Shown piece after piece: positions 3,211 to 64,000 of a stretch of 64,000 nucleotides of DNA. The position numbers and the translations under genes were made by a program. The stretch is from Blasia pusilla (Eukaryota), in contig CM114271.1 of assembly GCA_050084515.1 (NCBI GenBank), positions 42,532,001-42,596,000 of the forward strand, written 5' to 3'. Position 1 is the first letter of the stretch; the number at the start of each line of letters is the position of its first letter. Under the pieces are notes generated by a model. It was not told where the DNA came from and did not search any database. It was given only the letters and a program-made list of their open reading frames with translations.

Positions 3211-3293
3211 TTCCTACATCATGTCAAGAGCCAAGCAGGTGACTTGAGAGAATAGGTTAGTTACCATGGAGAGAGCTTGGGAGAGGGTAAGGG

Positions 3294-3512
3294 TATACTT
3301 CAAGGAGAGAGAGCTTGAGAGTTCATTCTCTCTTTGTTTAACCTCTTGGCATAAAGCGGCGGAGCTATGGTCCCTTGCCTTGTGAGTGTAACCCAAGCCT
3401 CTCATCAGGAGAGTGAGTTTGGTTTGACATGAGAGAGAGTGCACACCTTTGAGAGCTATGGTGTGAAATGGTGTAGAGAGAGATTGGATCTTATTTTACA
3501 AAGAGAGAATGA
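3294..3512 (+). promoter_or_regulatory. Copy 1 putative TATA-like box, transcript 5' end and self-priming PBS
   Basis: TATACTT at 3294; TCATTCTCTCTTTGT (3323-3337) is the exact reverse complement of ACAAAGAGAGAATGA (3498-3512). Confidence 0.7.
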
Positions 3513-11800: not shown

Positions 11801-12111
11801 GGCGATTGCACAGCATCGGAATACGTTGAGGTATGCAACTATTTGGGGTGGTGGTTATCGACAAACTATTTGGAGGTTTCATCAGGAGAGATTATGTCTA
11901 CTTGCAGTAGACATCACCGACGACGTTGGATGTGACTACAGGGCGCACTATCGTGAGAGTGCGTGACGTTTTGCCATCCGGTGTTCTCTTGTTGGAGGGA
12001 CGCGATGGTATGGTATGGAAGGATCATGTGCATAATTGTGCACCATGTCACCTTCCTAACATTGATGGTCAAGTAGATCCGAGCTTAGCAGTAGTTCATG
12101 CAGGCTTGCGT

Positions 12112-12252
12112 TGTATGTTGTGTGGTTCTGTCCGTGATGCGGCCACGATGCTAGTCTGTGATGGATGTTCGAGAGGTTGGAATATGGCATGTATGACGCC
12201 ACCTCTCACTAGGGTTCCTCGGGGACGATGGATGTGTCCCAGATGTACATAG
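12112..12252 (+). other. PHD finger at integrase C-terminus (copy 1)
   Basis: CMLC...[33 protein letters not shown] (His ligand changed to Asn in this copy). Confidence 0.9.
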
Positions 12253-12429
12253 AGGAGATACTAGGTAGGTTTCGATTCTGAATTTTTCTATGACATGGAT
12301 GACAGGAAGGCGACTAACGATGGGACCACATGAGCACCCGACCTTTTTGCTCTTAGCGTTCTAGAGATGTATGTCGTGATACCTAGGGATAGAGGACTAT
12401 TTGGAGTTAGAGGGACCTAACCACCAGCT

Positions 12430-12566
12430 AGGGGGGTCATTAGAGATATTTTAGTACTTGTTGTCTCGTTGTTTGGATGCCATGAGTTAGCATGGGATCG
12501 TGCGTGTTTGTGTGTGTGTTCGGTGACAGCCATGTATGTTGTGTAGCGATGTGTATGCACATGACA
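12430..12566 (+). repeat. PPT (AGGGGGG 12430-12436) and ~128-bp terminal segment B of copy 1
   Basis: Ends GTATGTTGTGTAGCGATGTGTATGCACATGACA, a tail shared with the ends of copies 2 and 3. Confidence 0.85.
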
Positions 12567-19718: not shown

Positions 19719-19879
19719 CAAACCTCTTTGACCATAGATAAATAATAGAATAAAGTGTAATGAAATGTATGCTTTATTGAGGTTAGATATATGCCTTACA
19801 TTTCCTCCATATAGTCATACAACCAAGGTTGCATGTGGAAAAAGTCCGTGTCCGCGGACATGTCCATGTCAATGGACTT

Positions 19880-20810
19880 ACGTCTGTCTTGTTGAAGGAT
19901 CATAGGTACATATTGTTCATGGTGGAGCATTTCTCCAAGTGGATAGAGTTAGTGGCACTACTAAACAAGCCAAGCAAGGAAGTGGCTTACGCATTTCTAG
20001 ATTATGTGCTTAGTCACTTTGGTGCAATGACGGAGATGTTGATTGATCGGGGTATCGAGTGCAAAGGAGAGTTTTTGGCCTTATGTGATCATGCGTTGAT
20101 AGATCACCGCACCATGTCCAGAGATCATCTCGAGGCAGATGGATTGGCAGAGAGAGTAGTATAGACAATGAAGAGAAGGTTATGCAAGTATGGCTTGCAT
20201 GGAGGACATTTGAGGAAGGAGGACCTATAGTTGCTATGGTTGGCTTCAGTTGGCAAGCATCCTTCGTGTTATTTTCACCATTCTTTTTGCTCTAGAGGAG
20301 AGAGTTGGACTTACTTGTAGCAATTCGACGTGACATGGCAGAGTTGTTGGATCTTGATAACCCAGATGTTTGCATGTTCTTAGAGGGTGGAGATTTTTTG
20401 TAGAGTTATGCATATGGCCTTTGAGAACTTGGCTATTGCCCATCATAGGGACACGTTGAGGTATGCGATCATTCATGGAGGAGGTTCTCATATAGGGATT
20501 AGGAGATCTTCATGTACATGCAGGAGCTCATGTGTGTGGATCTATCCGTATGTTGGGAAGATTAGTGTTATGTGGTGTGGATATGACAAGCGATATGTAT
20601 GCGCATGACATCTTGCTCTTAGCATCCTAGAGATGTATATCACAAGTAGGTAGAGATAGATGACTATCTAGAGTTAGAGGGACATAACCACCATCTAGAG
20701 GAAGATTGGAGATATTTTGGTAGCTAATCGACTTCATATTTGGATTCCATAGTGGAATGTGTGAGTCTAGTATATTGTGTGTTTCCTAGATGACAACAAT
20801 GTATATGCGT
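19880..20810 (+). mobile_element. Fragments of the DNMT/PHD Gypsy family: integrase core plus copy-2-type segment B (ends 20610), joined to a copy-1-type 3' UTR
   Basis: MVEHFSKWIELVAL...EADGLAERVV; GATATGTATGCGCATGACA end at 20610; TTGCTCTTAGCATCCTAGAGATGTAT resembles 12346 onward. Confidence 0.8.
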
Positions 20811-33341: not shown

Positions 33342-34690
33342 GGTTTTTCTTTGGCTCTCTATGCCCCCTCATTTGTGTCCTGATGGGTTTCCCATCCAGC
33401 AAACCGGCACCGCAGCACACTTGCCAACTCCTATTCCCTACTCTTTCTTCATCGTATTTATCTAGTTTTCTTTCGTTTTTTACTTAAATATCCACATCTA
33501 TAGTATAAGAGGAGGAGAGGAAAGTATTTTTTTCTGAAAGAAGTGGAGTTTTATTTTCTAAAGGAGGATATGCTTCAAGATAATAAATTTAATATTTCAT
33601 AAAATTGGAAGAAATTATGCACATTCTGCATGGCCGTTTATTTTTAAAAGATTGGATCTTCTCTAGCATCCATAAAAAGTTCTATCAACATTAGAATTTC
33701 GACTCCGTGCATGGTTAGAGAATACATGGAGTAGAGTTTCAAGATGTCGGAGCCGCTAAAAGATGCGGCGGAGCTGCGGTAACAATATTTACATGGATTT
33801 AGGTTCTTATTTAATGGTGTTGTAGAGTGGAAAATATGGAAGGTAGATACATTGATACTTATGCCAATGCATCGCACGGACACTTTGACTAGGTATTAAT
33901 GAAGGAGGAAAGTGTTTTCAATTTTTTATTAGCAAGAAAATGTTTTCATTAGAACCTCGACCTTGAATGCAACCAAGAGCAACAAAATGTTTCCAAAGCT
34001 CGACCTTGAAGAGAATGGAGATGGGAAATAATACTCTAGGATCACGAGTTGAACATCTCACGCATAAAGGTTTGAGTTATGTTAGCAAACCTCAAATCAT
34101 GGATTTTTTTTCATCTCAATGTCCTATGCAAAATCTTTTACCTTTTCTCTTCTAATGACTAGTAGTAGCAAGTAGTTGTGGCTTGCCATTTCCACCCACA
34201 ACATTAAACTTGGTTGCTATGTACAGGGATAATCGCTAGAATGCTCTATGGTTGAGTTTTGAGCGGCCCTATTTAAAAATCATCTAAACAACATATTTTT
34301 AGGTAGCATGACAATATATTAGCTCACCATGCACTAGTTCACAAGAATAATTTCCTTCTTGTCTTTCTTTGCCTTGTCCTTAAGGCCTCAATAAGACAAG
34401 AAGAGGTCCTTAAGAGGCTCCACCTAAAGGTTGAACACTTCTTTAACTAAAAGATTTATGACGATCAATTTTCTGATAGATCAGTTTTCATCAAGGATAA
34501 TCCTTTTGTCTATCTTTATTTCCATTTATCAAATCAAATGTGAAAGTCAGGAAAATCTTCTTCTTTTCATTTTCAAAAAAGAAATCTCTTTTATTCCCAC
34601 CTCTTCATTCAAAAAATTGAAGACCAAATTTCCCCCCGTCACTTTAATTCCTCTACATCTATATTGAAAAAAAATGTTTAGTGTCTAGCT

Positions 34691-35143
34691 TGTTATATCT
34701 GGGTAGCCGATAGGCCGAGATCTATCGTGGATAGGGCGTAGGAGCCAGCGGACTATCTTGAGTGTAACTTTGTCCCACAGTGTCGGATGAGGTTGAGGAT
34801 AGGTCCATTGTGTCAGGAACGTCGTTTCTGACGACTTTCATGTTGAGGTCTTTTACAACCGGGTGACTTGTTGACCAGGTCACCCGCCCCTGGTAACCTG
34901 TGCGTGCAGGTTACCAAGGGAAGGGCTATTTTTAGGCTATATAAGAGAGGAAGATGGCTTTCCTAAGCCATCTTTCTCATGTTGGGCCGTTGGAGCACCT
35001 CCCTTGTATGTGTGTGAGCTAGGACTAGGGTGCTAGCGTCCGGATTCCTTGATAGCACAGGGTGGACGAGGCTCGATATGCCGATGTAGATTGAGGAGTG
35101 GAGTTTTAGGCCGGGTGTGCCGTTTTTACTACTCTTTATTTTT
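34691..35143 (+). repeat. Repeat A1 (453 bp; contains TATATAA at 34938)
   Basis: Near-identical to 43856-44334 apart from a 26-bp hairpin indel and a few mostly C/T changes. Confidence 0.95.
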
Positions 35144-35157
35144 ACATGAGAAAGATG
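35144..35157 (+). promoter_or_regulatory. Putative self-priming PBS of copy 2
   Basis: ACATGAGAAAGATG is the exact reverse complement of CATCTTTCTCATGT (34969-34982), 31 nt after the TATA start. Confidence 0.75.
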
Positions 35158-36648
35158 TCAGGGGGCTGGTGGGAATTCGTTATTTGCAGGTAGGCAAGCG
35201 AGTTGCCTTGGTCGGGAGCCCCTGGAGACGCGTGTGTGACGTTTTGTGTCATTTTTCTGTTCGGAAGGCCGTGGGCGGAAGCGCTATCCGGTTTTCTTAG
35301 ATTTTGCTGGTACGGATTGATGGGGGACAACAGCCGAGTGTAGCGTGTGGTGGGGTGTCGGTGTACGCAAGTGAGGGTGTCGAGAAAGAGAAGAAAGGAA
35401 ATTTTGGGTCTTGCAGCCGCCGGGGGGCTGTTAAGTAAAGACGGCTAGCTAGGTCGCGGCCGGTCTAGGGTTAGGTCACGGGTGAGGGACGGCAGACGGG
35501 CGCCCCGAGGTGGGAGGAGCGCATAGGTGCGCGCGCCCCCCCTTCCCCCCCCCCCTTTTTCCCCCTCTCACCTCTCTCCTCCCGCAGGCAGGCCACGGGC
35601 CGGACGCCCCCCCATTTATTGCCCTCCCCAAAAGTTGGGGAGGCCCATAGGGGTGCGGGCCAGGCCCTCCCCCCCACATTTAGGGCCCAGGGGCCCGCAT
35701 TGGGCCGCGGACCCAAGTTCTCCCCCCCACTCCAACGTGGTAGCATCGACCATAGTCGGTCGGACAATTGTAGCATACGTGGTTGGCAGGACAGACGAGG
35801 TTAGTCGGGCGAACGTGAGTTGAGATTTGCCGGACATGAGTGGGAGCCGACCAGGGTGAGTCACGTTACATGCCGCGCGTGGAGATAGACAAAGGGGTTT
35901 GCGCGACATGATGTTTTGGGGCGCGATAGGGTTGCGAGAGTTTACGATGGAGGGGCAGTGTGCATGATGCCGACGGGTTTTCCGCATCTGTTGACGGGAG
36001 GATCGACGTGTTGGTCGAGGGGAGTGTTATGTGGCGGAGATTGTCATATGATGTGGAGGAGTGCATATTGACGGTGCAGCAGGTTGGAGGGCGTGATGAG
36101 GTTACCCATTCGAGTCCCTTTTCCCGCACTTGTCGTGTGTGATTGAGAGTGTTGGGTATCGGGTAGTAGCTGGTGCTAGATGGGTGCAGTGATGGTGACG
36201 AGTGTAGATTCTTTTCATGTGTAGCATGTTGGTGGATATACGGCCGTTGCCGAGTAGGGGTCGCGTGTATGACCCGAGAGAGTGTCGCTAGGTTAGGTGA
36301 GTCAGTTGGGAGGCTCATGGTAAGCCCGAGTGTTGAGCGTGCGTGAGGCCGGGTATGTCATCACGAGATTGACATTAGCATAGGTCAGCTAGTGAGGCGT
36401 GTGGGAGACTCTCGGTGAGTCTGAGTGCTTGAGCGGGTGAGACAGGGTTTGTCATCACGGCGTTCTTCCAAGGTTCGAAAGAACGGGGTAGTGCGAGCAG
36501 TGGTAGTGGTGTGACACGGAGTGGAGTGAGATACTGAGGGGTTACCAGTGAGGAGCTCCCTTGACATCCATCCGTGACTGGATCATCATCACTGGACACT
36601 GGGTCTGGTGACGAGATCACCGACAGAGACAGTAGTACTTAGTAGGAG

Positions 36649-39600
36649 ATGGACGACATGGGCCATCGGGGCATGCGTCGTTTCTCGGGTGCAGTGGGCA
36701 CCATCGACTTAGATGATTTCATCCAGGAGTTCGACACATGGTGCGACTTCCAAGAGATACGGACCCCGACACGGTTCAACCCTTTCATGGCATGGAAGGG
36801 GTTGTTCCAGCACTTGGATGGTCCTCCGATGGATGACTACATGGAGTTTCAATCACTATATTCAGTAGAGATCGATGCCTGGAGGATGTATTGGGCTCCA
36901 CTAGTGGTCGCGAGGCATATGATGGGATTGTGAGAGGAGAGAGACCCACACCATCAGCCCGGAGACTAGACGGAGAGGAGGGCAGTGAGACAGGCGATGT
37001 GGCATAGACCTCTGGTGGTAGAGGGCCACCACTTCAGCCCCACAAAGTGGAGTTCTTCCCGGTTGGGGAAGAGCTACCAGGCGTCATTTGACAAGCTGAA
37101 GAGTCTACAGGATTTTCAGCGACGATCGGGTGAGAGTCTGAGAGAGGCATTCACACGTATGAGGAGGCTGATCATTGCTACGTTTGGAGTGACTGAGGCA
37201 CAGTCAGTCCAGTATTGGTACGGGGTTCTGGACCGAGAACTACGGAGGTGAGTCCAAGATGCGGTCTTTGATTTCAAGCCCACATTGAAGGTGATCTTTG
37301 AGTTGTCTGAGCGTATTGAGCTCAACATGAGTGAGGAGCAGGTAGTGACCGCTGGATTTTCTCAAGAGTCGACGGGTCCACAAGCGGCGGTGACCCCACA
37401 AGTGCCACAGCGAGCACCAGTACCACGGGAGCAGGCCAGTGTGCCTAGAGAGCAGGGCGAGTACCGTGAGCCTATGAGGCAACGACCCGCACCTACATAT
37501 GTTGCCCAGCAGGGACATATGTGGTCTTGTTGGACGTGTGGAGGGGCCCATAGGCAGAGAGACTGCCCACAGCATGGGAGAGGACCACCAGCGCCTCCGA
37601 TTGCTCAGGAGCCATAGAGGATGGCCCCACCACAGCACCAGTGTGACCATTGCCATAGATATGGTCACACTAGGGATAGATGTTTTGACCTTCGACGAGG
37701 GGCACGTCCAGAGGTAGGCCGAGGGCCTGGGGACGGTCGTCCTGGAGGAGGTCGGGGAGTTCTTCCTAGACGTGGTAGTAGAGGACCACCACCAGCCAGA
37801 GGAGATGGAGCAGGAACACCAGAGCCGGCGCTTCTCTCACGCATCGATTAGTTGGAGCAGGGGATTGCTGCCATGACGATGATGCAGCTTAGGGAAGGCA
37901 CGGAGCTACGAGCAGCTAGTGTGACTCCGATCTCTACCTCTTACCCTGACCCGGGTGAGGATCTCTCCAGTATGGGATTCATGAGTAGTGCAGCCTGGGT
38001 TGAGGCAGCTGCAGTGGTGACTCGGGGTGCTGCAAGAGGCACCGAGCCATTGAGAGGTGGAGTTGAGATTGACCCACCGGAGGGGACCGATGGGCGGCAG
38101 GCCAGGGTTCCACAATCGTTCACATTGTCGGAGGCACTACACACACCATCGATGGTGCCTCGACGACCAGCGGTGCCTACAGTTCATGCACCTACGTCGA
38201 CCTCACGAGGAGTTAGAGTGACAACTCCTATGCCAGCTCGAGTGGAGTCAGTGTCGACTATAGTGTTGGAGGTGGCCACTAGAGTGAGTCAGACTCCGCT
38301 ATTTTCCGCCTTAGAGTTGGCGACGTTGGGAGTTGGACCAGCTGAGGTGTTCCGGTTGGCCGCCACGTTGTGTGAGCGTGGAGAGATGACTGCTTCTTGT
38401 TCAGAGGTAGTTGAGGAGGTGGTGGACTTGCCCTCAGAGCCGGTGCTTGGGGCGTTCCCCAAAGAGTCATAGCATGCGGCGGCGACGAAGTTGGTAGATA
38501 TGCCAGCTCGACCGGCCATAGAGCGAGCAGTGGTGACACCTGGAGTAGTGTTACTGGATAACCGAGCTGGAGTATTTCGCTTGGTTAGTCCAACGGGGAC
38601 GGTATACCACCCGCAGCGCGTCCTACTTGATTCGGGAGTGCAACCCTTGATGTTAGGGAAGGCGGCGTGTTTAGCGTTGGGGTTACGGAAGGCCGACATT
38701 GAGCCTTGTCCCTTCCAGATACATACCTCAATTGGGGGCGTATCACCCACTCAGTATATGACTCGACAGGAGATTGTTGTCAGAGTCCAGCCAGAGCATG
38801 CGACGGATAGTGCTATGGTGCGCACACGTGCGATTACGACACCAGCTGAGTCGTACGATGTGTTGGTGGGGAGTACAGTGTTATATCCCCTAGGATTCAT
38901 CCTTGACTTCTGGGAGGAGACCGTTGCTCATCGGCCAGGATGGCGGTCAGGTGACGGCCGGATGAGTCAGTTACCCGTGCAGTTTGCGGGACAAGATGGT
39001 CGATCACGAGGCGAGTCTGTGACCACGTTGGCGGCTTTCACAGGTAGTGTTAGCTGGCCAGGAGAGTTGTTGGAGGGAAACGCACATGCGGAGGATGTCC
39101 CAGTAGCGGATAGTCCCACGGAGAGATAGGCCATGGCGGGTGTCTCTTCCCATGTTGGCGAGGCCTCTTCACCATTGCGGGGTACGACTCGGGAGCTCTG
39201 AGAGGAGTGCCAACGACCGTGAGGCAAGCGGCGTGGAGTCATGTTTTTATCCCGAGCAGCGAGAGTCACGTGGCGATCGGGCTCTTGGAGTGGAGACGAT
39301 GACCCCACTAGATACCACACTTTGTGGGCGGTGCCGAGGAGGGTGTTAGGGTGTTAGATCTCTTCGGAGGGATTAGCACCGGATTGGTGCCATATTGCAG
39401 CGGGCATACGGGTGCATCAATACCTTTATGTGGAGAGAGATGTGTGAGCAGTATCATTAAATCACGTGGCAAGATTGGTCCAGAGGTATCATGAGTTGTT
39501 GTCGGATCTGCGATGACGGGGATACCAAAGATACGCTACCCGCCAACATCTCTTTGGTGGGGTGCGGGGATCTAGATAGAGTTGGCACCATTCATTTGGT

Positions 39601-42600
39601 GATTCTTTGGATGGCCATGTCGTGGTCATTCATCATCTGGCCGAGGATTTGGATTGCGGGATCCGAGGTCGGGATGTTTTGGGAGATGTCGCGAGAGTAT
39701 TACGACACTTGGGAGAGTCGATATGTTCTCCAACAGACATTTTGGGAGAACGTGCCGTTGTTGGGAGACACTCGTGCACGTGTGATGACGAGTGTACATC
39801 ATGTGAGGTCTTGGTTGGGACCTGCTGTGTTGTTAGATGCAGCGAGAGTTGGGTCACGTGCCCATCGTCCACGACTGTGGTGGACAAACCTGATACCATC
39901 GAGGTACTGAGTCGAGCCTGAGTGGAGTCAGAGAGCACCACATCTCACAATGGATGCTATTTTGGGCTCAGGGCGTCGATCTTAGGTGGTGACACGGGAT
40001 GATAGACCACCGTTGGCCATGGCCAATAGGGTGGGGGAGTTGAGGGAAGCCTTACCTACGTTGGTGAGCTTCCCAGCATCCCATGCCTTTTGTCAGGGAG
40101 GGCCAGGCATGATTTGGGATGAGGCGATCAAGTATTGGAGGAGCTACAATGATGAGCGCGAGCGCCATGGGGTTCACTACCGGTACTACGGCGGTGCGTG
40201 GATGATTGAGGCATCACGGAGACAGGTGTTGGGGCCGGCGATGGACCTCAACTGTCTCACATGGATAGTTAGCCTAGGTATGGCTGAGCAGAGACGGATG
40301 CGAGTGTCATCCACGCCGTCACGTCCACGAGCTGGACCATTGCCTACAAGGTCTGTACAGGCATTGGCTGGGGGCAAGACGAGGAGAGATAGGCACCCAT
40401 GGACTTCCTGGGACGTCGTTCAAGCAGAGAGTGCAAAGGCGGCTAGAGTAGCACATGTTCATTTTTCGGATGTGGAGCATGGTGTAGGAGGTCAGAGTGG
40501 AGTGGTTGTTGCGGAGGTGGCTAGGATTGCTACATAGCAACCAAAGCCGGAGGTTGCGTCCTCTCCGAGTGAGGTCACGATTGAGACTTGGGAGCCTGTG
40601 ATAGGTCTCAAGTTGATAGGAGGAGAGCGACGGCGAGTTCAAAGGTTTTTGAGAGGGCATGTCAGTTGTTTTGCCTTCAGTATGAGAGACTTGGGTACGC
40701 TAAAGGGTCCCGGGATACGGATTGAGTTGGCTAGTGATACGCCGATCTTTCGTCCACCCTACAGGTATTCTGATATGGAGCGAGCCTTGATTCAGAGTAG
40801 GAGTCAGGACTTGTTGGAGGCAAGACTTGTGGAGTTATCACATGGGGAGTATGCATCTGCCACCGTCATGCCGGCGAAGAAGGATATGCATGGCAATTGG
40901 ACGGATAGGCGGATGTGTGGAGATTACCGTCCTATCAACCGACAGACGAGGTCAGATCGGTATGCCATGCCTACTCCTGAGGAGATCTTTGATGCGGTAG
41001 GGCATGCAAAGATCTTCAGAATTTAAATCTCCAAGCTAGCTATCATCAGCTTCCTATCAGGTTGGAGGACAGGGAGAAGACATCATTCTGGGGGATACAT
41101 CGGTTCGGGAGAGATTGCTTGTATCAGTGGCGGTTCTTACCATTTGGATTGAAGAACGCGCCTGCGGAGTTTCAGAGAGTGATGGATGGGATTCTGGTTG
41201 GCTTGGATTTTGTACGATGTTACATAGATGATATTCTTATCTTCAGTTCCACGGTTGAGGAGCATGAGCGACACTTGGAGGAGGTATTTCGGCGATTGCG
41301 GTTACATGGACTGAAGTTACATCCAGGCAAGTGTAGATTCTTTCAGGAGCAGATTGAGTACTTGGGACACACCATATACCCGAGTGGGTTAGGTGTTCAG
41401 CAGACGAAGGTAGAGGCTGTTGCGCAGATTCCACGCCCTATAGATGTGAGTCGAGTCCGAGCATTTCTTGGACTTGCGAACTTCTATCGACGGTATGTCA
41501 AGGGTTTTAGTGCGATCGCAGAGTCTTTGACCTTGTTGACGAGACTTGATGAGGTGTGGTTGTGGGGAGATGATCAGGAGCGAGCATTTCAGAGCTCAAG
41601 GACAAAGTTGCGTCCTCACCCATTTTGAGAGACCGGTTAGGGGTCGCCCATTCGATTACATACGGATTGGAGCATGTTGGGTCTAGGAGCAGTGCTTACT
41701 CAGAGGGATGACGAGGAGAGGGAGTTCGTTGTGGCTTACACGAGCCGATCGAAAAACATTGCAGAGGCGAAGTATAGCTCCTACGAGGGAGAGTGCTTGG
41801 CTGCAGTGTGGGCCGTGGCACATTTTAGGTGCTATTTATTCGGCAACCCTTTCACACTCATCACTGATCATCAGCCGTTGAGGTGGTTGATGGAGTCCGA
41901 CAAGCTTACGGGAAAGCTTGCCAGGTGGGCTCTATTACTACAGGAGTATGAGTTCGAGGTGGTTCATAGGCCAGGTCGGCTGAACCAGGATGTGGATGGG
42001 TTGAGTCGTAACCCATGTCCGAGTCAGAGAGACGTCACGGGAGCTCGATGGCACGGAGAGAGTGATGAGGAGATGGTGCCCGGTTGGCATGCATCTGCCT
42101 ATCTTTGTTGGTTGACTATAGCGGTCACCATACGGTGATGACTCAGTGGTGGGATTGGATGATGAGTCTTTGGATCCGGAGGTTAGTGAGGAGGCGGCGG
42201 TGGTCGTGATATCCATGACGACGTGGAGGTTGTGGAGTTTTTCAAGACCTTTGGCGTCATTTGAGTACAAAGTGAGTGCTAGGGAGAGGATCGGATCCTG
42301 AGAGAGCCAAGAGGTTCAGGTGGGAGGGGACTCACATTTTACGGGTATGGGGAGATGGTAGGATACGAGTGGTACCTCATCCTTCCCAAATGAAAGCACG
42401 TGTAGTGCGACATGCCCATGAGGAGTTGGGACATTTCGGAGTAAAGCGCACTTACAACTTACCGTGTTCAGATTGGTGGCGCGGCATGCATACTTTGGGG
42501 TACTGTGATTTGTGGCCAGATGTATGGTATGTGACAGAGTGCGAGCATCCTTCAATGCTCCCACTCAGATTACATCCTTTGCCGATTATGGGTTTAGGTT

Positions 42601-43639
42601 ATCGGTGGAGTTTAGACTTTTGGGACCTTTGCCATTGATGGGCGTCATCAGTGCGTGTTGGTCATGGTGGAGCATTTCTCCAAGTGGATAGAGTTGGTGG
42701 CACTACCGGACAAAGCGGCGAGGAACAGCTTATGCGTTTCTAGATCGTGGTGCTTAGTCACTTTGGTGCACCGGCGGAGGTGTTGACCGACAGGGTACCG
42801 AGTTCAGGGGAGAGTTTCAGGCCTTGTGTGATCAGGCCGATAGATCACCGCACCACGCCCGGGATCATCCCGAGGCGGATGGGTTGGCAGAGAGAGTTGA
42901 CGGTGAAGAGAGGATTGCGCAAGTATGGCTTGCAGCGGGGCGATTGAGGGGTGGGACCTACGATTTGCCATGGTTGGCTATGGGTTATCGCTTTAGTCGG
43001 CAGCATCCTTGGCGTCATTTTCACGTACTTTTTGCTCTTTGGGAGAGAGCCAGATTTACCTGCAGCGATTCGACGTGACATGGCGGAGGTGTTAGATCTT
43101 GATGATCCAGATGTGTGGGTGCAAGCATGTTCTCAGACGGCATAAGTTTTTCGTAGAGTTATGCCTATGGCCTTTGAGAACTTAGCTATTGCCCATCATA
43201 GAGATACATTGAGGTACGCGACCATTCGTGGAGGAGGTTATCGTCCAGGGATTAGGAGGTTTCATCCTGGAGATTACGTGTATTTTAGCAAGCGGCGGCA
43301 CCCACGACGCTAGATGTCATCGTAGGGCGCCGCGATCCTACGTGTGCGCGAGGTATTACCGACCGGAGTCCTCATGTTGGAGGGATGGGATGGTATGGTT
43401 TGGAAGGATCATGTGCGCAATTGTGCGCCATATCATCTTCCGAACGTAGATGGGATGGTGGATCCGAGCTTGGCAGTGGTACCTGCAGGCTTGAGGTGTA
43501 TGTTGTGCGGATCTGCGAGGGGTGCAGCCACCATGTTGGTATGTGATGGTTGTTCTCAAGGGTGGGGCATATGTCATGTCTGACCCCCCCTCTTGATGTT
43601 GTTCCCACGGGACGATGGATATGTCCGAGATGTGTATAG
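36649..43639 (+). pseudogene. gag-pol of copy 2, interrupted by many short indels
   Basis: CWTCGGAHRQRDC and CDHCHRYGHTRDRC knuckles, VLLDSG protease, DNMT, YIDD RT, RNase H, integrase, PHD (43497-43639). Confidence 0.95.
39345..40260 (+). other. DNMT3-like methyltransferase domain (copy 2)
   Basis: VLDLFGGISTG (39351), GWPCRG (~39609), ENVPLLG, GSRAHRPRLWWTNL, RRQVLGPAMDLN. Confidence 0.9.
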
Positions 43640-43706
43640 GGTAGTAGGTCATGTTAGAGAGGTGTGATATTTTCTATCTGGAGTTAGGGGGATCCAACTG
43701 CTAGCT

Positions 43707-43853
43707 AGGGGGGCGGTTGTGTGATCTCCATGTATATGTATGAGTTGATTTTTGTACATGTGTGGATCGACCCGTGTGTGGAGAAGATCGGTGTTGTGTG
43801 GTGTAGATGTGACGAGGGATGTATGTTGTGTAGCGATATGTATGCCCACGACA
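43707..43853 (+). repeat. PPT (43707-43713) and repeat B1 (43716-43853, 138 bp)
   Basis: AGGGGGG-CG then GTTGTGTGATCTCC...CACGACA; repeated at 44335-44472. Confidence 0.95.
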
Positions 43854-43855
43854 GC

Positions 43856-44334
43856 TGTCACATCTGGGTAGCCGATAGGCCGAGATCTATCATGGATAGG
43901 GCGTAGGAGCCAGCGGACTATCTTGAGTGTAACTTTGTCCCACAGTGTCGGATGAGGTTGAGGATAGGTCCATTGTGTCAGGAACGTCGTTTTTGACGAC
44001 TTTCATGTTGAGGTCTTTTACAATCGGGTGACTTGTTGACCAGGTCACCCGCCCTTGGTAACCTGTGCGCGCAGGTTACCAAGGGAAGGGCTATTTTTAG
44101 GGGAAGAGCCTTTTGGCTCTTCCCAACCTATATAAGAGAGGAAGATGGCTTTCCTAAGCCATCTTTCTCATGTTGGGCCGTTGGAGCACCTCCCTTGTAT
44201 GTGTGTGAGCTAGGACTAGGGTGCTAGCGTCCGGATTCCTTGATAGCATAGGGTGGACGAGGCTCGATATGCCGATGTAGATTGAGGAGTGGAGTTTTAG
44301 GCCGGGTGTGCCGTTTTTACTACTCTTTATTTTT
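43856..44334 (+). repeat. Repeat A2 (479 bp)
   Basis: TGTCACATCTGGGTAGCC...TACTCTTTATTTTT; separated from B1 by GC. Confidence 0.95.
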
Positions 44335-44472
44335 GTTGTGTGATCTCCATGTATATGTATGAGTTGATTTTTGTACATGTGTGGATCGACCCGTGTGTGG
44401 GGAAGATCGGTGTTGTGTGGTGTAGATGTGACGAGCGATGTATGTTGTGTAGCGATATGTATGCGCACGACA
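44335..44472 (+). repeat. Repeat B2 (138 bp), element 3' terminus
   Basis: Near-identical to B1, ends CGACA, followed by TSD AGCT. Confidence 0.95.
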
Positions 44473-47400
44473 AGCTTCTTTGTAGATAGAATGATATTCA
44501 AATGTCTTTTTATTTTTACCGCAAGTAATCATTTGTAAATATCTATAATTATATTTCCCAATGAATATTTAAACTAGAACAAAAAAATTATATGTGAGAA
44601 AGGAAAGAACATATACAACTACTATTATACTATATATAACTTCAACCTAAGATAATTGATCTTAAGAAAAGAGAAATTTTTCAGTTTTCCCTATTAAGAA
44701 GACCATCGTAGAGTCCATCCTCTACTTCACCAAGCTTCATTCCAAAGTATTTCTGATCTTTAGCTTTGCCAGTAGAAGACTTGGATTGAGTCCCAAAGAC
44801 TCAATCGATTGCACGTTTCATACGTAGCCGAGAACTTCCAGCTGCCAAGTGCTGATCCGGTTGAGTCTCCCCAAGTGCGTGTTGTCTCCTTGGGAAGGCT
44901 CTCCCCAACTCGTTCCCCGGGCCTTGACCAATCTCCTCAAGTCGCTCGCCTAAATCAGAGCACGCTAGTTAATTGCTCAAGGTGTGTCCCTTAGCTCAAA
45001 ATTGAACTAAACACAAATTATAATTAGTTCATGGTTCAAGGGCTTGAGCGGGTAGATTAGGAGAGTGTTCCCCCTATCTAGGTACTTCTAGAGTTCTCTT
45101 AGGAAATCCCACCTTCACCGTTGTCCCCCTCAGGCCTTTGATTTTTGCCCTCAATCCAAACGTAGTTTGCAATGTGCGGATCAATGTTTGACTAGTTATC
45201 CATCAAGATGGTTTGGCAGAGGCTTCTTACAGCTTATTCAACTCTCAGCTCCCCAAATGCATATTGGATCTTGGACGTGCATGTGCCTCATGCATAGCTA
45301 GCGCCCATTGTGACTCCTTGTTTGGTGTCTCATGGTTGTTTTGTTGTCCTTTGCATTTAATGACTAGTCTCGTGGCGTCTAGCCCATCTTAACAACTCAC
45401 ATGTTACTTGCTTCCTTTCCTTCGTTCCCGCGATTACCTTTCTCACCTAAGGCTAGTCACAAGACACGTACGCGTCTGGCCAAGTGTTGGTGCCGCAATT
45501 GATTATGTCGACTTTCCTCACCTTGTGACTAGTTAGTCTAGGTTTCAGCTTTGGTAGATCCCACCAAGGTCTCTCCTCCTTGGACCCACGATCATAACTC
45601 GCTTCCCGGATCCCTGTTAGTGTGGGCGTCATAGACCTAGTTAATATTCATAAGGAAGAATCAAATGATTTTAGTTATATAGAAATTCACCTTTTGAGAT
45701 CTATAATCTTGATTACTTCTAAGAAAGTTTGTGCAATGCAATTACATCTTACAAGACTATGTTAAGTTTTTATTGGTATATAGTTCTCCATTTATCAAAA
45801 TCATAAATGTATTTTTTACTCCTAAAAAATTCTCCAAATTTCATAAGAGATAATTTAAAGAGATGCATAATCATTTCAATTATTTTAGAAGGCAATTTTT
45901 GTAGCAAATACCCTCTTGTCTTTCAATTATAACATCCCTACCCTCTGACAACCCGACTTCCCTTTCCCTTAGGCCACTCTTGCCCTGCTGTCATAGAGTC
46001 TAACTTGTACCTCTCCTTGCTTTGCCCCAAAGCAATCCCAACCTTGAGCCTTGCAAGTGGAAGACATAAATTGAATCCTAAAGACTAAACCCGTTACACA
46101 TTCCCTTAGGTGGGTACAAGGTGGGTGTATCCACCTAAGATTACAATCTTAGGTGGAGACATCATACAAGTTGGCAAAAGAATTGTAAGTGTTTTTTTCA
46201 TGGTGGACCCATTGCAACAAAATATTCAAGATAGTTAGGGATATGAAAACTTGTAAAAAGAAGGGAGACAAAGTGAAAAAAAAAGACAGCAGGTCAATTT
46301 TTCAATATAGCACACCATTCATGGATCACAAGAATATTAAATTCAATATAGAACAATTCTAAGCAGAACATTCAATAAAATATCTAGTCTACTTTTCAGC
46401 AATTCTCTTTAAATTTCAGGTTAGTATAGGGGGGAAAATGCAGTTTGAAAGATGCATCACTTAGTGCATGCAGGGAACTTGTCCCCAGCGTGCTAACACT
46501 AAAAACGCTCTAAGAATGCTTTCGGCCAGACGCGAATGGACGGCGCACCGGTTTCCAATAGACGTTGACACCCAGGAAAAACAATCCTCCGGTGAAATTT
46601 CAAATCTATCGTTTGCCACCTATATTAATCGATAACTTTTCTTACGTAGAGACAAACGATGGCAGTTCTTCCGGACTCCAATCGGAAAGGAGAAACAGGT
46701 GAATCGGAGGGGAGCGTGGTACGGTAGTCGTGCGGAGGACAGCGGGACCAGAAGCCATTTTGTGGCCAGCCCATGCCAACGGAGCGTGAAGCATGGACAG
46801 CAAAGGTGATTGACTCAAACGAGGTCCTCCGGCAACCCCTGTTGGTGCATGAATTTGCCCTCATCTGTCAGTCAGAGACTTCAAGATCGCCACGTCCAGC
46901 CGCCACCAATTATTCATTTCCAATACGGAGAAACCTCGACGAAGAGGAGTATAGACGCCGGCGGAGGGGCTCTCGGGACGGACTAAGACGACGAGTTGAT
47001 TCCTTGATTGGAACCGCGTTGCCACAAAATTGCAAGTCGACCACGCACGTTGGAAGTATACGATATGGCACATTCTCTACGCGGAGACGAACGAAGCAAA
47101 TGTAAAGGAAATCTTGGTTGCTTTTCTCGTAGGGTCATTCCAGGGTGAAATGTTGTAAATCTCGATCGGCTTCTCCTTGAAGTAATTCTAGATACTGCAG
47201 GCATGTCCGTAGTTCAGTTGATTCTGGCGTGGATCTGTGGTAGTTGACGTCGCCATGCCGACTGAGAAGGATTTGCTTTTTCACAGATGGCGTAGCGAGT
47301 CTCTGAACTACATATTGAATGTTGAGGATCCCCTGATCATCGCCGAGAAGTTCTCATTACCGTTGAGTTAAACTCATATTGACCATTATTTCTGAACATT

Positions 47401-51848: not shown

Positions 51849-54767
<2,919 letters not shown>

Positions 54768-54990: not shown

Positions 54991-55568
54991 TTAATTAAAT
55001 TAAATTAATATATTACCAAGGCCTCATTAAAACCAACCCTAGGAGGTATAATATTATATTAAAATATAATTAATTAATTAATTAAAAGAAATAAATTAGT
55101 AAAATTTTATTTCCTAGGAGAATGAAGGAATCCACAATATCTTGTAAATTTTCTAACATTTATTAGGAAATCAAGAATATGAAATTATTTCAAAAAAATA
55201 ATAATATAACTATAAAATAAATTCATGAATAAGAAGTAAACCTAATACAAAAATAAACCATTAAATTAAATCAAACATTAAATATTTGGGAATAGAAGAC
55301 GGAGTCCAATAAAAGTTTGAATATAGATCATTAACATTAAACAATGAAAAAAGGTAGTAAAATTTAAATATCAAAGAGTAAATGAAAATGAGTACCATCA
55401 TGAATAATTAGGAAATGATAATATATTTATAATAAATTTTTTTCCACAAAACAATCCATCTTGAGTACGTCCGAGAATCACTAAACCTAATATAAGTAGA
55501 CCTAGAGTTCATTGAAAAAGAGCAAACAAAAGAATACAATATTCACTGGTTTGTTTCCTGGCTTCCCC

Positions 55569-55924
55569 TCATTGTGAATCCAACTCTACGTCTGCTCCAC
55601 GCGTAACAACTACGACAGCCTTCATCTGGGCAACCCCGCACATCCCACCTGGATCCTCCATATCTCTGGAGGCTCTATAAGACATCGATGCCACAGATCC
55701 GGCTTCGGGTAACCTCAATGCCATAGCGACATTCTGCTGCTGTATCTGAGTAGCCATACAAGCCTCACTCCCGGCGTCTCCCTTGATGCATATAGGTGGT
55801 GGGACTCTAACTCCTCCACAAGCAACTCCACCATCCCCTCGGGAAAATCCAACTCCTCGTCCCCCAACGGGACTACCTGGTATACGACCTCTAGGCCAAC
55901 CCGGACCGGCAACTCGTTCTGGTG
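55569..55924 (-). mobile_element. Gag-linker fragment of another member of the same family, the insertion target of copy 3
   Basis: Homologous to ~6312-6672 and ~62275-62635 (ATQIQQQNVAMALRLPEAGSVAS). Confidence 0.85.
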
Positions 55925-56923
55925 TGTCGTGCGCATACACATCGCTACACAACATACATCGCTATCACTAAGCACACACACAAATATGCACGATCCCATG
56001 CTAACTCATGGCATGAGTTAGCATGGGACAAGAAGTACCAAAATATCTCCAATCGCCCCCCTAGCTGGTGGTTAGGTCCCTCTAACTCCAGATAGCCATC
56101 TATCCCTACCTACCATGACATACATGTCTCGGACGCTAAGAGCAAGAAGGCCGGGTGCTCATGTGGCCCCATCATTAGTCGCCTTCCTGTCATCCATGTC
56201 AGAGAAAAAGTCGGGATCGAAACCTACCTAGTATCTCCTCTATGTACATCTGGGACACATCCATCGTCCCCGAGGAACCCTAGTGAGAGGTGGCGTCAGA
56301 CATGCCATATGCCAACCTCTCGAACAACCATCACAGACTAGCATCGTGGCCGCACCACCGGCAGAACCACATAACATACAACGCAAGCCTGCATGAACTA
56401 CTGCTAAGCTCGGATCCACTGTACTATCAATGTTAGGAAGGTGACATGGTGCACAATTACGCACATGGTCCTTCCATACCATACCATCGCGTCCCTCCAG
56501 CAAGAGAACACCGGAGGGCAAAACGTCACGCACTCTCAGGATAGTGCACCCTGCAGTCACATCCAACGTCGTCGGTGCCGTCTGCTGCAAGTAGACATAA
56601 TCTCCTTGATGAAACCTCCGGATAGTTGGTCGATAACCACCACCCTGAATAGTCGCATACCTCAACGTATCCCGATGTTGCGCAATCGCCAAGTTCTCGA
56701 ACGCCATGGGCATCACTCTCTGAAATAACTCATCCCTCTGAGAACATGCTCGGTCCCATACATCTGGGTCATCAAGGTCCAACACCTCACCACCATCTCG
56801 ACGAATGGCCGCAGGTAAATTTGGCTCTCGGCCATAAAGTAGCAAGTACGGTGAAAAAGACGCTAAGGATGCCTGCCTGCTGAATCTGTATCCCATCGCC
56901 AACCATGGCAACTGGAGGTCCCA

Positions 56924-57330
56924 CCAGCCTTCGGCCCTTCTTTGGTTTTACCAAAAAAGGACCAAAAAACAAAATTATATTTTTCAAACTTTTTTGCGGC
57001 CTAGGCCTCGGATAAAGAAAAAAGAAAATCAAAAATAAAAGTGAAGTAGAAAATTTTATTTTAGGCACGTAATGCTCAACCCGATAGGCGAGAGGGGTAG
57101 AAAAATCTATATTTTTTCCGCTACGTGCCTTCTTTCTTAGCCATTTATAGAAGTGTCGGACCTGCGGGCAGAAAATGTCAAAATTTTTTTTTTTTTGTAG
57201 AGTATATTTCCAGAAACTTATCAGAATCGTCCCTTTGTTTTGTCTAACAGTGTCTGGCCCTTTTTTTGTCAGAAAAAAAATTTTCCCGACCCGCAGGGCC
57301 TCTCCCGCGGGTATCGTCCCCTTTGGCCAA
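56924..57330. other. ~400-bp foreign AT-rich insertion in the integrase of copy 3
   Basis: Splits HLGD|WDLQ, which is contiguous in copy 1 (CTAGGAGATTGGGACCTCCA); no clear TIR or TSD. Confidence 0.7.
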
Positions 57331-60059
57331 AAATCTCCTAGGTGACCTCTCTGCAAGCCATACTTGCGTAGACCCCTCTTCACCGTCTGCACAACTCTCT
57401 CCGCTAATCCATCCGCCTCAGGATGATCTCGTGAAGTCGTGCGGTGGTTGATCAACGCTTGATCACACAAGGCTTGGAACTCACCCCGAAACTCGGTACC
57501 TTGGTCTGTCAACACCTCAGCCGGTGCGCCATAATGACTCAGCACTCTGTCAAGGAAGGCATAAGCTACTCCCTCACTCGCTTTGTCAGGCAATGCAACC
57601 AACTCGATCCACTTCGAGAAGTGCACGACCATCACCAACACATAACGACTGTGACGCTCTGTCAAAGGCAAAGGTCTTGCAAAATCCAAACTCCACCTAT
57701 ACCCTAAGCCCATGATCGGTAATGGATGCAACTGTGGAGTCGGAGCATTGAACGATGCTCGAACCCGATCACACACCATGCACTTGGCAAAAAACTGTTG
57801 AACGTCAGTATGCATGCCTCGCCACCAATACTCAATCTAGAGCAAGCTGTACGTCCGCTTCACCCCAAAGTGACCCAACTCCTCGTGGGCATGCTGCACT
57901 AGTCATACTCTCAGCGAAGGATGTGGCACTACGCGTACTCTGCCATCCTCCCAAACCCTCAAAACATGTGTCCCCTCCCAACGGAACCGTCTGGCCCGCT
58001 ATAGGATCCGATCTCGCTCTCTAGCACCCACAGTGCTCGCAACACTGCCAGTACAAAGGTACTCCAAGACTACTCCATTATCATGAATATCTCGGCCACC
58101 TGTCGTCTCCTCAGTGGCCTCGGGATCCAAGGACTCTCCATTAGACCTCGCCATCGAAGTCTCCACACTTTGGCTCTCCATAGCCAACATGCCTAAATAG
58201 GCTGACGCGTGCCATCCTGGCACCGACTCCTCATCACTCTCTCCATGCCATCAAGCTCCAATTCCATCTCGCTGACTTGGGCATGGCTTACGACTCAACC
58301 CATCTGCATCTTGGTTGAGCGTCCTAGATCTATGTACCACCTGAAAATCATACTCCTGCAACAATAGAGCCCATTTCGCAAGCCCTTGTAAGCTTGTCGG
58401 ACTCCATCAACCACTTCAGTGGTTGATGATCAGTGATGATGGTAAAGGGGTTGTCGAATAAGTAACACATGAAATGCGTGACAGGCCACACCGCAGCCAA
58501 GCACTCACACTCATACGAGCTGTATTTCGCCTCTGCAGCGTTGTTCGAGCGGCTAGCGTAAGCCACCATGAACTCTCTACCCTCATCATCATGCTGGGTG
58601 AGCACCGCTCCAAGCCCCAACATGCTCCAATTTGTGTGCAACTGGAAAGGACGCCCCCTGATCGGTCTGCTCAAGATGGGCGCAGACATCAACCTGTCCA
58701 AAAGCAAGTGAAATGCTTGCTCCTGCTCATGCCCCCAGTGCCACTCGTGATCCACCTTGGTCAGCAAGGTCAGTGGCTTCGCAATCGAACTGAATCCCTT
58801 GACGTATCGCCGATAGAAGTTCTCCAATCCCATGAATGCGCGAACCCGGCTCACATCTGTAGGGCGTGGAATTCGTGAGATAGCCTCTACCTTCGTTTGT
58901 TGAACACCAAGGCCCCCAGGGTATATCGTATGACCCAAGTACTCAATTTGGTCGTAGAAGAACTTGCACTTGCCTGGATGTAGCTTCAGCTCATGTAATT
59001 GCAATCGTCGAAACACCTCCTCTAGATGTCGCTCATGCTCCTCAACCGTGGTGCTAAAGACTACGATGTCATGAATATGACACCTAGCAAAATCCAGACC
59101 AGCCAAGATCCTATCCATGACCCTCTGAAACTTAGCCGGGGCATTCTTTAACCCAAATGGTAAGAACCGCCACTGGTACAAACAATCCTTCCCGTGAGGA
59201 TCGATGCCCCAAAATGCCGTCTTCTACCTGTCCTCCAATCTGATAGGCAGCTGATGGTATCCGGCTCGCAAATCCAATGAACTAAAGACCTTTGCATGAC
59301 CAATCGCATCAAAGATCTCCTCAGGGGTGGGCATGGCATACCTATCGGACTTCGTCTGCCGATTGATAGGTCGGTAATCCCCACACATCCGCCTATCCGT
59401 CCAATTGCCATGCACATCCTTCTTGGTGGGCATGACAGTGGCAAATGCATACTCCCCATGGGACATCTCCACTAGTCCTCCTCTGACCAAGTCCTGGCTC
59501 CTACTCTGAATCAGAGCCCTCTCCATATCACTATACCTGTAGGGTCGTTGGAAGATCGGCGTATCACTCGACAACTCAATGCGGATCCCCAGTCCCTTCA
59601 GCATACCCAAATCCTCCATGCTAAACGCAAAGCAGCTCCTATAACTCTTGAGGAACTGATGTATTCGGCGCCGCTCTCCTCCTATCAACTTAGGGCCCAT
59701 ATATGGCTCCCAAGTCTCCATCGTGACTATGGTAGGACTCTCCGGCGGGGGTATCGGTGGTTGCTATGGTGCAACCCCGTCTCGAACAACAACACTCGGC
59801 CGCTCTCCTGCAGCCAACTGCAAACTTTGATCTCCTCCACGTGCAGTGCCCGAAACCACACTCGATGTTATGGCTATCATCTCCTTGCGTACCTGCAAAA
59901 CATCCCAAGAAGTCCAAGGGTGTCTCTCCCGATCTCCTCGGGTCTCGCCCCCAGCCACTTCCTCCATTGTCTGGGTAGGCATGGGGCTCACCAACGCAAC
60001 CACTATGATGTGTCGTGATCTCATACGACGTTGCTCAGCCACTCCCAAGCTGAGGATCC

Positions 60060-60995
60060 CATGTCAAGCAGTTCAGGTCCATCGCCTGACCCAAGACATG
60101 GCGTTGTGATGCCTCTGACATTGACGGTACTGCCATCACTTTGTGGGAAATCCCATCGCTCGCTCTCTCTCGTCGGCGTTGGGCTCCACTAACCGCTGAA
60201 CGTGGTCATCCTAAACCAAGCCAGGACCGGCCTCCTTGTATGCATAGGAAGCGGGAAAACTCACAAACGTGGGCAAGGCTGCCCGTGGCCTGCCTACCCT
60301 ATTGACCACAGTCAAGGGTGGTCGATCATCGTGCCTCGCAGCTTGTGATTGACGACCTGGATCTAGAATGGAATCCACTAACAAATAGGAGGGGCGCTCC
60401 ACTCTCGCATACGCCCTCCGTAATACCGCATGGGGCACCAAGTTGGTCCACCATAGACGCGGGCGATGGGCTCTAGAACCTACACTTGACGCATCCAAGA
60501 ACACTGCTGGGCCGATCCAGGCACGCACCTGATGAGCACTCGTCACCACCCGTGACCTGGAGTCTCCTAAGATCGGCACATTCTCCAGAATGTAGGCTGG
60601 AAAATGAGACTGGTGCTCCTGCAACTACCGTAAGACCCTCAACATCTCCCAAAACAACCTGGACCGAGTGTCAGCCAACTCGCTGCCTCGTCTAGCACTC
60701 GATTGGCCCTGACATGGCCAACCGGCAATGACCAAATCAATGGTCCCTACCCGCTCTAAGTCCTACGCCCCCAACAACGAAATATCCCTCAGTAGGGAAC
60801 TCTGGTAACCCTGTATTGCGGACGTAGAAAATAAGTCGGGAAAACGTAGGCATAACTATGCCACATGTCGTAGTGAGACGCGCCTTGCAACATCATCACT
60901 CTCCACATACAGTCTTTGTTGTACTCGCACTCTGCTGCAAAGCAAAGAGCTAACCGGTGCTAATCCCTCCAAAGAGATCTAACACTCGAATACCC
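60060..60995 (-). other. DNMT3-like methyltransferase domain (copy 3)
   Basis: IRVLDLFGGISTG, IAGWPCQGQS, ILENVP, GSRAHRPRLWWTNL, ERERAMGF, HVLGQAMDLN. Confidence 0.9.
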
Positions 60996-63900: not shown

Positions 63901-64000
63901 CGTGATGACCCTCGTGCCCTTCTCACCCGATCACTCTTGCCTCGCGAGTAATCCCTCAATCACTCATCCCAAACATGCGGCACTCGATCTACACTCTCCC

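Follow-up and report, generated by a model that had tools for sequence, protein, structure and literature searches.

The locus examined here raises the question of how a retroelement with a DDE integrase comes to be inserted in the order A-body-B-A-B, in which neither end carries a complete long terminal repeat (LTR). The element, el2, lies in a window of 64,000 nt of Blasia pusilla DNA (GenBank assembly GCA_050084515.1, contig CM114271.1, positions 42,532,001 to 42,596,000, forward strand); all positions below without a locus name refer to this window. We found that the split-repeat layout is the normal form of a widespread and abundant streptophyte Gypsy lineage and not a one-off. On the sequence evidence, the integrated form is rather likely a fixed circular permutation of a two-LTR provirus, for which a self-primed complementary DNA (cDNA) would be cut at an internal attachment (att) site and its tips joined.

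From left to right, el2 consists of a repeat A1, a body of 8.6 kb, a polypurine tract (PPT), a repeat B1, the dinucleotide GC, and second copies of the two repeats, A2 and B2 (Table 1). The insertion starts with TG and ends with CA (..CGACA), and the tetranucleotide AGCT stands on either side as a target-site duplication (TSD). The GC at 43854-43855 sits in a perfect 10-bp palindrome, GACAGCTGTC (43850-43859), and two nucleotides (CG) separate the tract AGCTAGGGGGG from the start of B1. This layout, the TG..CA ends, the AGCT duplication and the internal junction had been proposed in a first-pass annotation made from the bare letters, and a repeat search together with the sequence itself gave the same coordinates throughout. 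Pairwise alignment of A1 with A2 gave 445 matching positions, a single 26-nt indel and 8 substitutions, every one a transition, and B1 differs from B2 at 3 of 138 positions. The divergence of the A pair (1.8%) is similar to that of the B pair (2.2%), which fits one insertion event with repeats that were identical at insertion. The 26-nt indel is a hairpin-forming segment of A2 (44101-44126) that is missing from A1; it was probably lost from A1 after insertion, because read depth suggests that most family copies have it. Two other elements in the window, el1 and el3, are related to el2 at 65-77% identity.

To the array in the assembly we compared raw whole-genome reads of run X20, which may be the sample behind the assembly. 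About 2 Gb was sampled, and 10598 reads at least 90% alike were aligned to positions 43600-44365. The depth amounted to ∼1300-1835 over A and ∼1520-1620 over B, against ∼790-810 for the body side; both repeats thus had about double the body coverage, which indicates two A and two B per body. The end of A led into the primer-binding site (PBS) sequence in 555 reads (agreement 0.86) and into the start of B at exactly the joint of the window (44334 to 43716) in 288 reads. About 70 more reads joined A to B within a few bases of this point, with +T (19 reads), +TT (5), +ACA (3) and +G (15) among the matches listed; ACA are the first bases of the PBS and G is a base from the PPT side. In the window's family the A/B joint is ∼81% uniform and not random. 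Heterogeneous, unrelated AT-rich flanks led into the start of A in 541 reads. The GC was spanned by ∼1035 reads, 217 of which turn into a different A after 10 bases and represent a sister subfamily with the same junction. The end of B led into unrelated flanks in 1307 reads, including those of other families whose similarity is limited to the final 36 bases of B, and 1446 reads broke at 43818 with el1-like sequence. Among the matches listed for X20 there was no class of reads running from flank into the start of B or from the end of A into flank, and the agreement of 0.86 at 44334 limits A-end/flank reads to at most a small minority there.

After rough correction, the four junction types (A/PBS, A/B, flank/A and B-GC-A) were about equally frequent. 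Near-equal counts are predicted by the order A-body-B-NN-A-B, in which NN is the two-nucleotide spacer, and not by ordinary paired LTRs, of which the copies showed none. The reads support the B1-A2-B2 array, and contigs of two other organisms span its junctions as well (A/B in X7 record 22, B-GC-A in X12 record 4). Since the B-GC-A and A/B junctions recur in raw reads and contigs from four runs, each of a different study, the array is not an assembly artefact.

The same reads carry a substitution pattern. Family reads depart from el2 mostly by G>A (at 62 places) and C>T (at 33). Inside the CAGCTG palindrome, G>A was seen at 43854 in 362 of 1040 reads and C>T at 43855 in 215 of 1030. Deamination at methylated CHG and CG positions would account for the pattern.

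Relatives were collected from metagenome contigs with an alignment of integrase homologues, which gave 80 loci; an earlier metagenome scan with the single el3 integrase open reading frame (ORF) had returned 80 pattern matches, 0 of them confirmed. A B1/B2 pair is present in 27 of the 51 loci that extend at least 1 kb past the integrase, with the two copies 380-480 nt apart and the pair directly after the PPT. One of these 27 loci (L043) is a messy tandem, and the rest collapse by identical flanks to 18 distinct insertions with the array. They belong to four subgroups, with integrase identities to the query of 46-51%, 57%, 62-63% and 72-82%, and B is 98-181 nt long. The B1/A2 junction reads ..ACGACA-NN-TGTCATG.. 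in all paired loci, NN being GC, AC, AT or GT, and CA-NN-TG is kept in 36 of the 80 related loci, 234-512 nt downstream of the integrase. The full order is identical in five complete copies, which also share TGTCATG..CACGACA ends. Their TSDs are exact in four cases (AAGG, ACCT, CATA and GTGT) and match at 3 of 4 positions in the fifth (GCAT/ACAT). Over the eight insertions checked, a 4-bp TSD is exact in seven (el1, el2, L001, L002, L065, L067 and L079) and matches at 3 of 4 positions in L058.

The 24 loci without a pair comprise 12 (10 distinct) that end B/flank, 6 with the head-to-head junction and an incomplete or unusual end, and 6 unresolved. The joint itself deviates in a few relatives: in L006 it contains filler together with a PPT-side CGAG, and in L008 the dinucleotide GA. 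A further structure was found at L038:3361-3878 (the same insertion in L040), where B-GC-A-PBS runs into 176 nt that repeat the first part of A in inverted orientation. The inverted copy is 94% complementary, with 166 nt between the arms, and ends at the inverted start of A, ..GTCATGACA/flank. It looks like the snap-back of a plus strand that ended in a PBS copy and folded on the transcript-start sequence, which would place the 5' end of the minus strand at the end of A. At L075:1983-2290 (the same insertion in L077), B-AC-A2 is followed by unrelated sequence, including an RT-like frame (reverse transcriptase, RT) of another retroelement, and not by B2; this may be a broken array or a nested insertion.

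The boundaries of the repeat that takes part in reverse transcription were deduced from the PBS and the PPT. The 14 nt after A1 (35144-35157) can pair without a mismatch with positions 34969-34982 of A1, a site 24-30 nt past the TATATAA box; complementarity of more than 10 nt arose in 0 of 5000 shuffles. Such pairing was examined in five families (el2, el1, L002, L058 and L065). At the same position el1 has a different 15-nt PBS, complementary to 3323-3337. The PBS complement is 16 nt in L002 (equalled or exceeded in 0 of 2000 shuffles), 15 nt in L058, just past TATAAAAGG (equalled in 1 of 2000), and 11 nt at offset 2 in L065 (equalled in 9 of 2000). As the PBS sequences differ among families while the pairing is kept, the pairing covaries, and this covariation indicates putative self-priming of the Tf1 type. 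With the PBS directly after A and the PPT directly before B, the end of A would be the end of U5 and the start of B the start of U3. The reverse-transcription repeat would consequently be B-NN-A, and A2/B2 a joint of the U5 end with the U3 start. The PBS/PPT logic supports what the first-pass annotation had inferred, namely an LTR of the form B-gc-A, ligated ends at A2/B2 and an att site at the internal CA-GC-TG. The converse assignment, with A-B (TG..CA) as the true LTR and B1-GC-A2 as a circle junction of the retrovirus type, was ruled out, since it is A that the PBS follows and B that stands after the PPT. By eye, and with no formal search made, the start of B in el2 and the metagenome relatives showed no further PBS-like site from which the joint could be templated.

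Table 1. Features of el2, of its relatives in the window and of the methylase region in metagenome locus L017.
Feature	Position	Strand	Basis or remark
el2, TSD left copy, AGCT	34687-34690	+	read from sequence
el2, A1: 3' part of the reverse-transcription LTR (rest of U3, R, U5), begins with integrase end TGT	34691-35143	+	
el2, TATATAA box in A1, putative promoter	34939-34945	+	box read from sequence; function predicted
el2, first bases of predicted transcript, putative self-primer	34969-34982	+	14 nt, exact complement of PBS
el2, PBS of self-priming type, from the first base past A1	35144-35157	+	complementarity
el2, gag-like and aspartic-protease region, frames broken	36646-38988	+	tblastn with L017 ORF1 residues 67-834; protease domain seen in L017
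el2, C5 cytosine DNA methyltransferase remnant	39530-40294	+	37% identity to L017 ORF1 residues 1003-1260, E 7e-36
el2, RT and RNase H	40580-42138	+	RVT_1 2.6e-26, RT_RNaseH 1e-34
el2, integrase: H2C2 zinc domain and frameshifted DDE core	42276-43080	+	Integrase_H2C2 5e-06; D, D, E motifs over three frames
el2, PHD finger at integrase C-terminus, frameshifted	43450-43640	+	PF00628 matched in el3 (9e-12) and L017 (2.6e-10)
el2, PPT, AGCTAGGGGGG	43703-43713	+	kept in el1, el3 and metagenome relatives
el2, B1: 5' part of U3, ends with integrase end ..CGACA	43716-43853	+	
el2, head-to-head integrase ends, palindrome GACA-GC-TGTC (internal att site)	43850-43859	.	read from sequence
el2, A2	43856-44334	+	repeat search
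el2, A2/B2 joint: U5 end meets U3 start	44334-44335	+	sequence; 288 reads with exactly this joint, plus small variants
el2, B2, right end of insertion	44335-44472	+	repeat search
el2, TSD right copy, AGCT	44473-44476	+	read from sequence
el1: A'-PBS-body-PPT-B', TGTCA..TGACA ends, GGTG TSD, no NN-A-B extension	2583-12566	+	65-77% identity
el1, methylase region	8064-8303		
el3: right end PPT-B'..CGACA at 55925, 5' end beyond the window	55925-64000	-	
el3, methylase region	60142-60954	-	
L017, methylase region	L017:3793-4233		

The coding regions of el2 are dead, with many stops and frameshifts, and el2 is a degraded copy of a high-copy Ty3/Gypsy-type lineage. The proteins of this lineage comprise gag, protease, C5-DNA methylase, RT, RNase H, DDE integrase and a PHD finger. 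The almost intact metagenome relative L017 has two long frames with a single in-frame stop between them: frame 1 (1369 aa) holds the aspartic protease and the C5 DNA methylase, and frame 2 (1047 aa) holds RT, RNase H, H2C2, rve and PHD. Domain scans, which were run on stop-free ORFs, matched rve in el3 (7e-13) and L017 (9.8e-14), and the methylase PF00145 in L017 (1.8e-13), L022 (5.4e-12) and el1 (3.3e-09). Neither PF00145 nor any other Pfam methylase was matched in the stop-free ORFs of el2, which has a homologous remnant only; homology to the methylase region, placed between protease and RT, is present in all three elements of the window. Single-chain database proteins also combine protease, methylase, RT, RNase H, integrase and PHD; among the named matches, several are from Marchantia. 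The integrase-PHD frame is intact in L017, L022 and many database proteins.

No tyrosine recombinase (PF00589 or other, E<=0.01) was found in 20 el2 ORFs of at least 100 aa or in 4 L017 ORFs, so that the scans of el2, el3 and L017 agree with the earlier reading of a DDE integrase without a tyrosine recombinase. The lineage has the Gypsy order RT, RNase H, integrase, a Gypsy-type RT_RNaseH, rve and H2C2 domains, TG..CA ends and a short TSD. In place of two complete identical LTRs, the left end carries A only and the right end B-NN-A-B, family-wide.

Two observations concern the coding frames. The single in-frame stop that splits the gag-protease-methylase frame from the RT-integrase frame occurs in L017 (5083-5085) and L022 (4661-4663), which come from different samples, and suggests possible stop-codon read-through between the two frames. 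The named protein neighbours are from the liverworts Marchantia, Riccia and Calypogeia and the alga Closterium, and the integrase core of el3 is 82-90% identical to proteins of liverworts from different classes (Calypogeia, Riccia, Marchantia). This identity is unusually high for a transposon at such distance and suggests either strong constraint or transfer.

For a lineage of this anatomy we propose the following replication route. Transcription would start in A1 ∼25-30 nt past the TATA box, and the first 14-16 RNA bases would fold back on the PBS next to A1 to start minus-strand synthesis in the manner of Tf1 self-priming. Plus-strand synthesis would begin at the PPT. Reverse transcription would yield a linear B-NN-A-PBS-body-PPT-B-NN-A, in which U3 would be B plus the first part of A and the rest of A would be R and U5. 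The tips of this cDNA (GTTGTG.. and ..TTATTTTT) would lack usable integrase ends, as no CA stands near the 3' end of U5; the integrase ends would instead lie head to head inside U3 (..CGACA-NN-TGTCA..). If each strand were nicked on the 3' side of its CA, at points 2 bp from each other, the duplex would be severed into two ends with 2-nt 5' overhangs and a recessed CA-OH, which by established integrase chemistry should be the same product as that of retroviral 3' processing. The two CA ends would then be inserted with a 4-bp stagger. Joining of the U5 tip to the U3 tip, either in a two-LTR circle before insertion or by end joining afterwards, would create A/B, and use of the upstream-LTR site alone would give A-PBS-body-PPT-B-NN-A-B. 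The joint varies exactly where primer removal varies, which supports joined cDNA tips over a templated joint, and so does the snap-back structure of L038/L040. A broader proposal we put forward tentatively, with chances a little short of even: that this is a streptophyte DDE lineage in which the att site has moved into U3, so that it would depend on the joining of cDNA tips (two-LTR circle or end joining at the insertion site), with an asymmetry that always picks the upstream-LTR site.

Several points weigh against the permuted-provirus reading. The evidence is genomic DNA, from which we infer the circle, the RNA ends and the enzyme activity, and the transcript start is predicted from the TATA box only. 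The X20 counts come from different detection windows and from part of the matches, and their corrections are rough. The opposite permutation, A-B-NN-A-body-B, was never seen: not one of the 80 loci, ∼15 of them with 8 kb or more of sequence upstream of the integrase, has the head-to-head motif on that side, and the scan also gave four degenerate, unrelated matches. Likewise, all 10 resolvable 5' ends are flank/A-PBS, vs. 18 arrays at the 3' end. Because the palindrome would occur twice, in identical form, in a two-LTR circle, random opening predicts both permutations equally, and a simple circle needs an added asymmetry. Our guess is that the upstream LTR becomes double-stranded first, or that its site is the one nearest a tip (98-181 bp). 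For the earlier proposal of a circle opened at the internal site, this means that the internal att site and the joined ends are supported; the free circle is a candidate intermediate, and the single permutation is not what random opening predicts. Finally, roughly one in three metagenome insertions (12 loci, of which 10 are distinct) and el1 lack the array and end B/flank. They fit products of recombination between B1 and B2 that lost NN-A-B, since el1 (GGTG) and L001 (TACA) keep their TSDs and the window's young family shows almost no such copies.

The alternative that we rank second, and consider unlikely, combines the logic of DIRS and Ngaro elements with a DDE integrase: a transcript running from A1 to B2 would carry the A/B joint, template switches would rebuild a linear A-body-B-NN-A-B, and ordinary integration of the tips would follow, with no circle and no end joining. 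Such a templated route accounts at once for the single permutation and for the ∼81% uniformity of the joint within the family. The repeat order is the one described for tyrosine-recombinase elements in the available text of PMC5890265, and the GT-rich B resembles a downstream polyadenylation element, so that transcripts could end in or after B2. However, we could not devise strand transfers whose end points would fall precisely on the TG of A and the CA of B. The PBS after A1, the PPT before B1 and the B-GC-A-PBS snap-back place the strand ends as in retroviruses, a scheme under which B2 would not be copied from RNA, and joint variants with PPT-side or PBS-side bases look like joined cDNA tips. 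An improbable variant of the integrase route would have linear cDNA cut at both internal sites, with A-body-B as the primary product and the NN-A-B tail added later. Copies of this form with intact TSDs do exist (el1, L001), and they make up the B/flank third of the metagenome insertions. Yet A-body-B has no 3' copy of R and could not be recopied under the retroviral scheme, and in the young, abundant family of the window the number of GC-spanning reads is about that of flank/A reads once the sister subfamily is removed, i.e. nearly all copies are arrays. In addition, we know of no process that would add exactly NN-A-B.

Two further explanations carry even less weight. A tyrosine recombinase supplied in trans by a DIRS-type element could insert the circle, leaving the DDE integrase uninvolved; split repeats are otherwise known from tyrosine-recombinase elements, according to the available text of PMC5890265, but we regard this as very improbable. 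The exact 4-bp TSDs in seven of eight insertions and the inverted TG..CA ends are the mark of a DDE integrase, the integrase-PHD frame has been kept intact, and the ORFs scanned in el2 and L017 contain no such recombinase. Least credible of all is a one-off accident, i.e. an ordinary paired-LTR Gypsy copy that was rearranged, recombined or mis-assembled. The window does hold a single copy of the exact family, and its sister el1 lacks the array; the idea is nevertheless already refuted by the host reads, in which the four junction types have comparable counts and the usual LTR ends are missing, by the independence of 18 insertions, which are spread over four diverged subgroups and bear separate TSDs where this could be checked, and by the X7 and X12 contigs across the junctions.

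Other parts of the window hold further traces of the lineage. A related integrase fragment at 19853-20512 has 46% identity to residues 688-914 of L017 ORF2 and 78% DNA identity to el2. The stretch 55546-55924, after the right end of el3, is an 82-84% copy of the el3 region 62247-62634 (minus strand) downstream of the gag zinc knuckle, and probably means that el3 is nested in an older relative. As a second example of the array this stretch (55924-55546) was ruled out, because it copies the region past the zinc knuckle, and at only 82-84%. Outside the elements, the window contains a long (CT)n-(CA)n microsatellite (52549-52690) and a 42-nt tandem duplication (1790-1873).

The first-pass annotation knew of no described Gypsy family with this design. 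One has been described: KnitGypsy-Dnmt3 of Klebsormidium nitens is stated to have DIRS-type repeats with Gypsy domains in the legend of Fig. 4c of de Mendoza et al. (2018; PMC5890265), and the legend of Fig. 1e in the same paper defines DIRS repeats as A-coding-B-A-B. As described there, KnitGypsy-Dnmt3 resembles the el2 lineage in its Gypsy domains, a C5 DNA methyltransferase in the polyprotein (Dnmt3-type in KnitGypsy), the DIRS-type repeat order and a streptophyte host. The comparison is by description only, and Klebsormidium is not among the named protein matches obtained here; the hosts of the el2 lineage are bryophyte-type (Marchantia, Riccia, Calypogeia, plus the alga Closterium), whereas that of KnitGypsy-Dnmt3 is Klebsormidium. 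The prior mention found is one sentence in a figure legend, and the available text gives no account of the ends, TSD, PBS/PPT, palindrome, permutation, PHD finger, self-priming or mechanism. In the literature searched, we found no published mechanism for split-repeat elements with a DDE integrase. The design is therefore not new to print; the anatomy and its implications for integrase biology appear new.

The elements of DIRS order (PAT, Ngaro, VIPER and TOC1, the last a non-autonomous DIRS element according to the available part of PMC9940879) share A1-body-B1-A2-B2 with the el2 lineage. They encode a tyrosine recombinase, whereas the el2 lineage has a DDE integrase, TG..CA ends, 4-bp TSDs, a 2-nt spacer and a Gypsy-type RT/RNase H. 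To our knowledge, tyrosine-recombinase elements of this order make no TSD. The el2 lineage is not a member of that group, as the recombinase is absent and TSDs are present.

In its predicted priming, the lineage would resemble Tf1, sushi and Tcn1, in which the PBS complements the start of the element's own transcript and not a tRNA. A plant survey, in its available text, places self-priming among Gypsy elements only in the Tcn1 clade of mosses and club-mosses (PMC6317226). Tf1, sushi and Tcn1 are described with ordinary paired LTRs and a chromodomain, in contrast to the split repeats and the PHD finger at the integrase C-terminus in the el2 lineage. In retroviruses, the junction of a two-LTR circle is, like the putative el2 att site, a palindrome of head-to-head integrase ends: the integrases of foamy virus (PMC1180852) and HIV-1 (PMC1905944) are reported, in the parts of these papers available, to cut LTR-LTR junction palindromes. 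The retroviral palindrome is the U5/U3 joint of a by-product circle, and the provirus is unpermuted, whereas in the el2 lineage the palindrome is built into U3 and the U5/U3 joint is a separate, non-palindromic site retained in the inserted copy. The TGTT/AACA non-canonical LTR families of Rosaceae (PMC5659011, available text) were considered and set aside as a different thing, being Copia-like elements and TRIMs with odd dinucleotide ends.

For annotation, the layout means that standard LTR finders would pair A1 with A2 as a TG..TT "LTR" without a TSD, and would mis-annotate or discard a very abundant lineage. The design separates the ends of reverse transcription from the ends used by integrase, which coincide in every well-studied retrovirus and LTR element. 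The lineage offers a natural system for three questions: whether a retroviral-type integrase can act on an internal palindrome, whether host end joining or circle formation can be a productive step rather than a dead end, and how DIRS-like split repeats arose independently of tyrosine recombinases. If the broader proposal of an att site moved into U3 is true, the lineage would naturally and obligatorily follow a model given up long ago, that of the circle junction as the substrate of integration.

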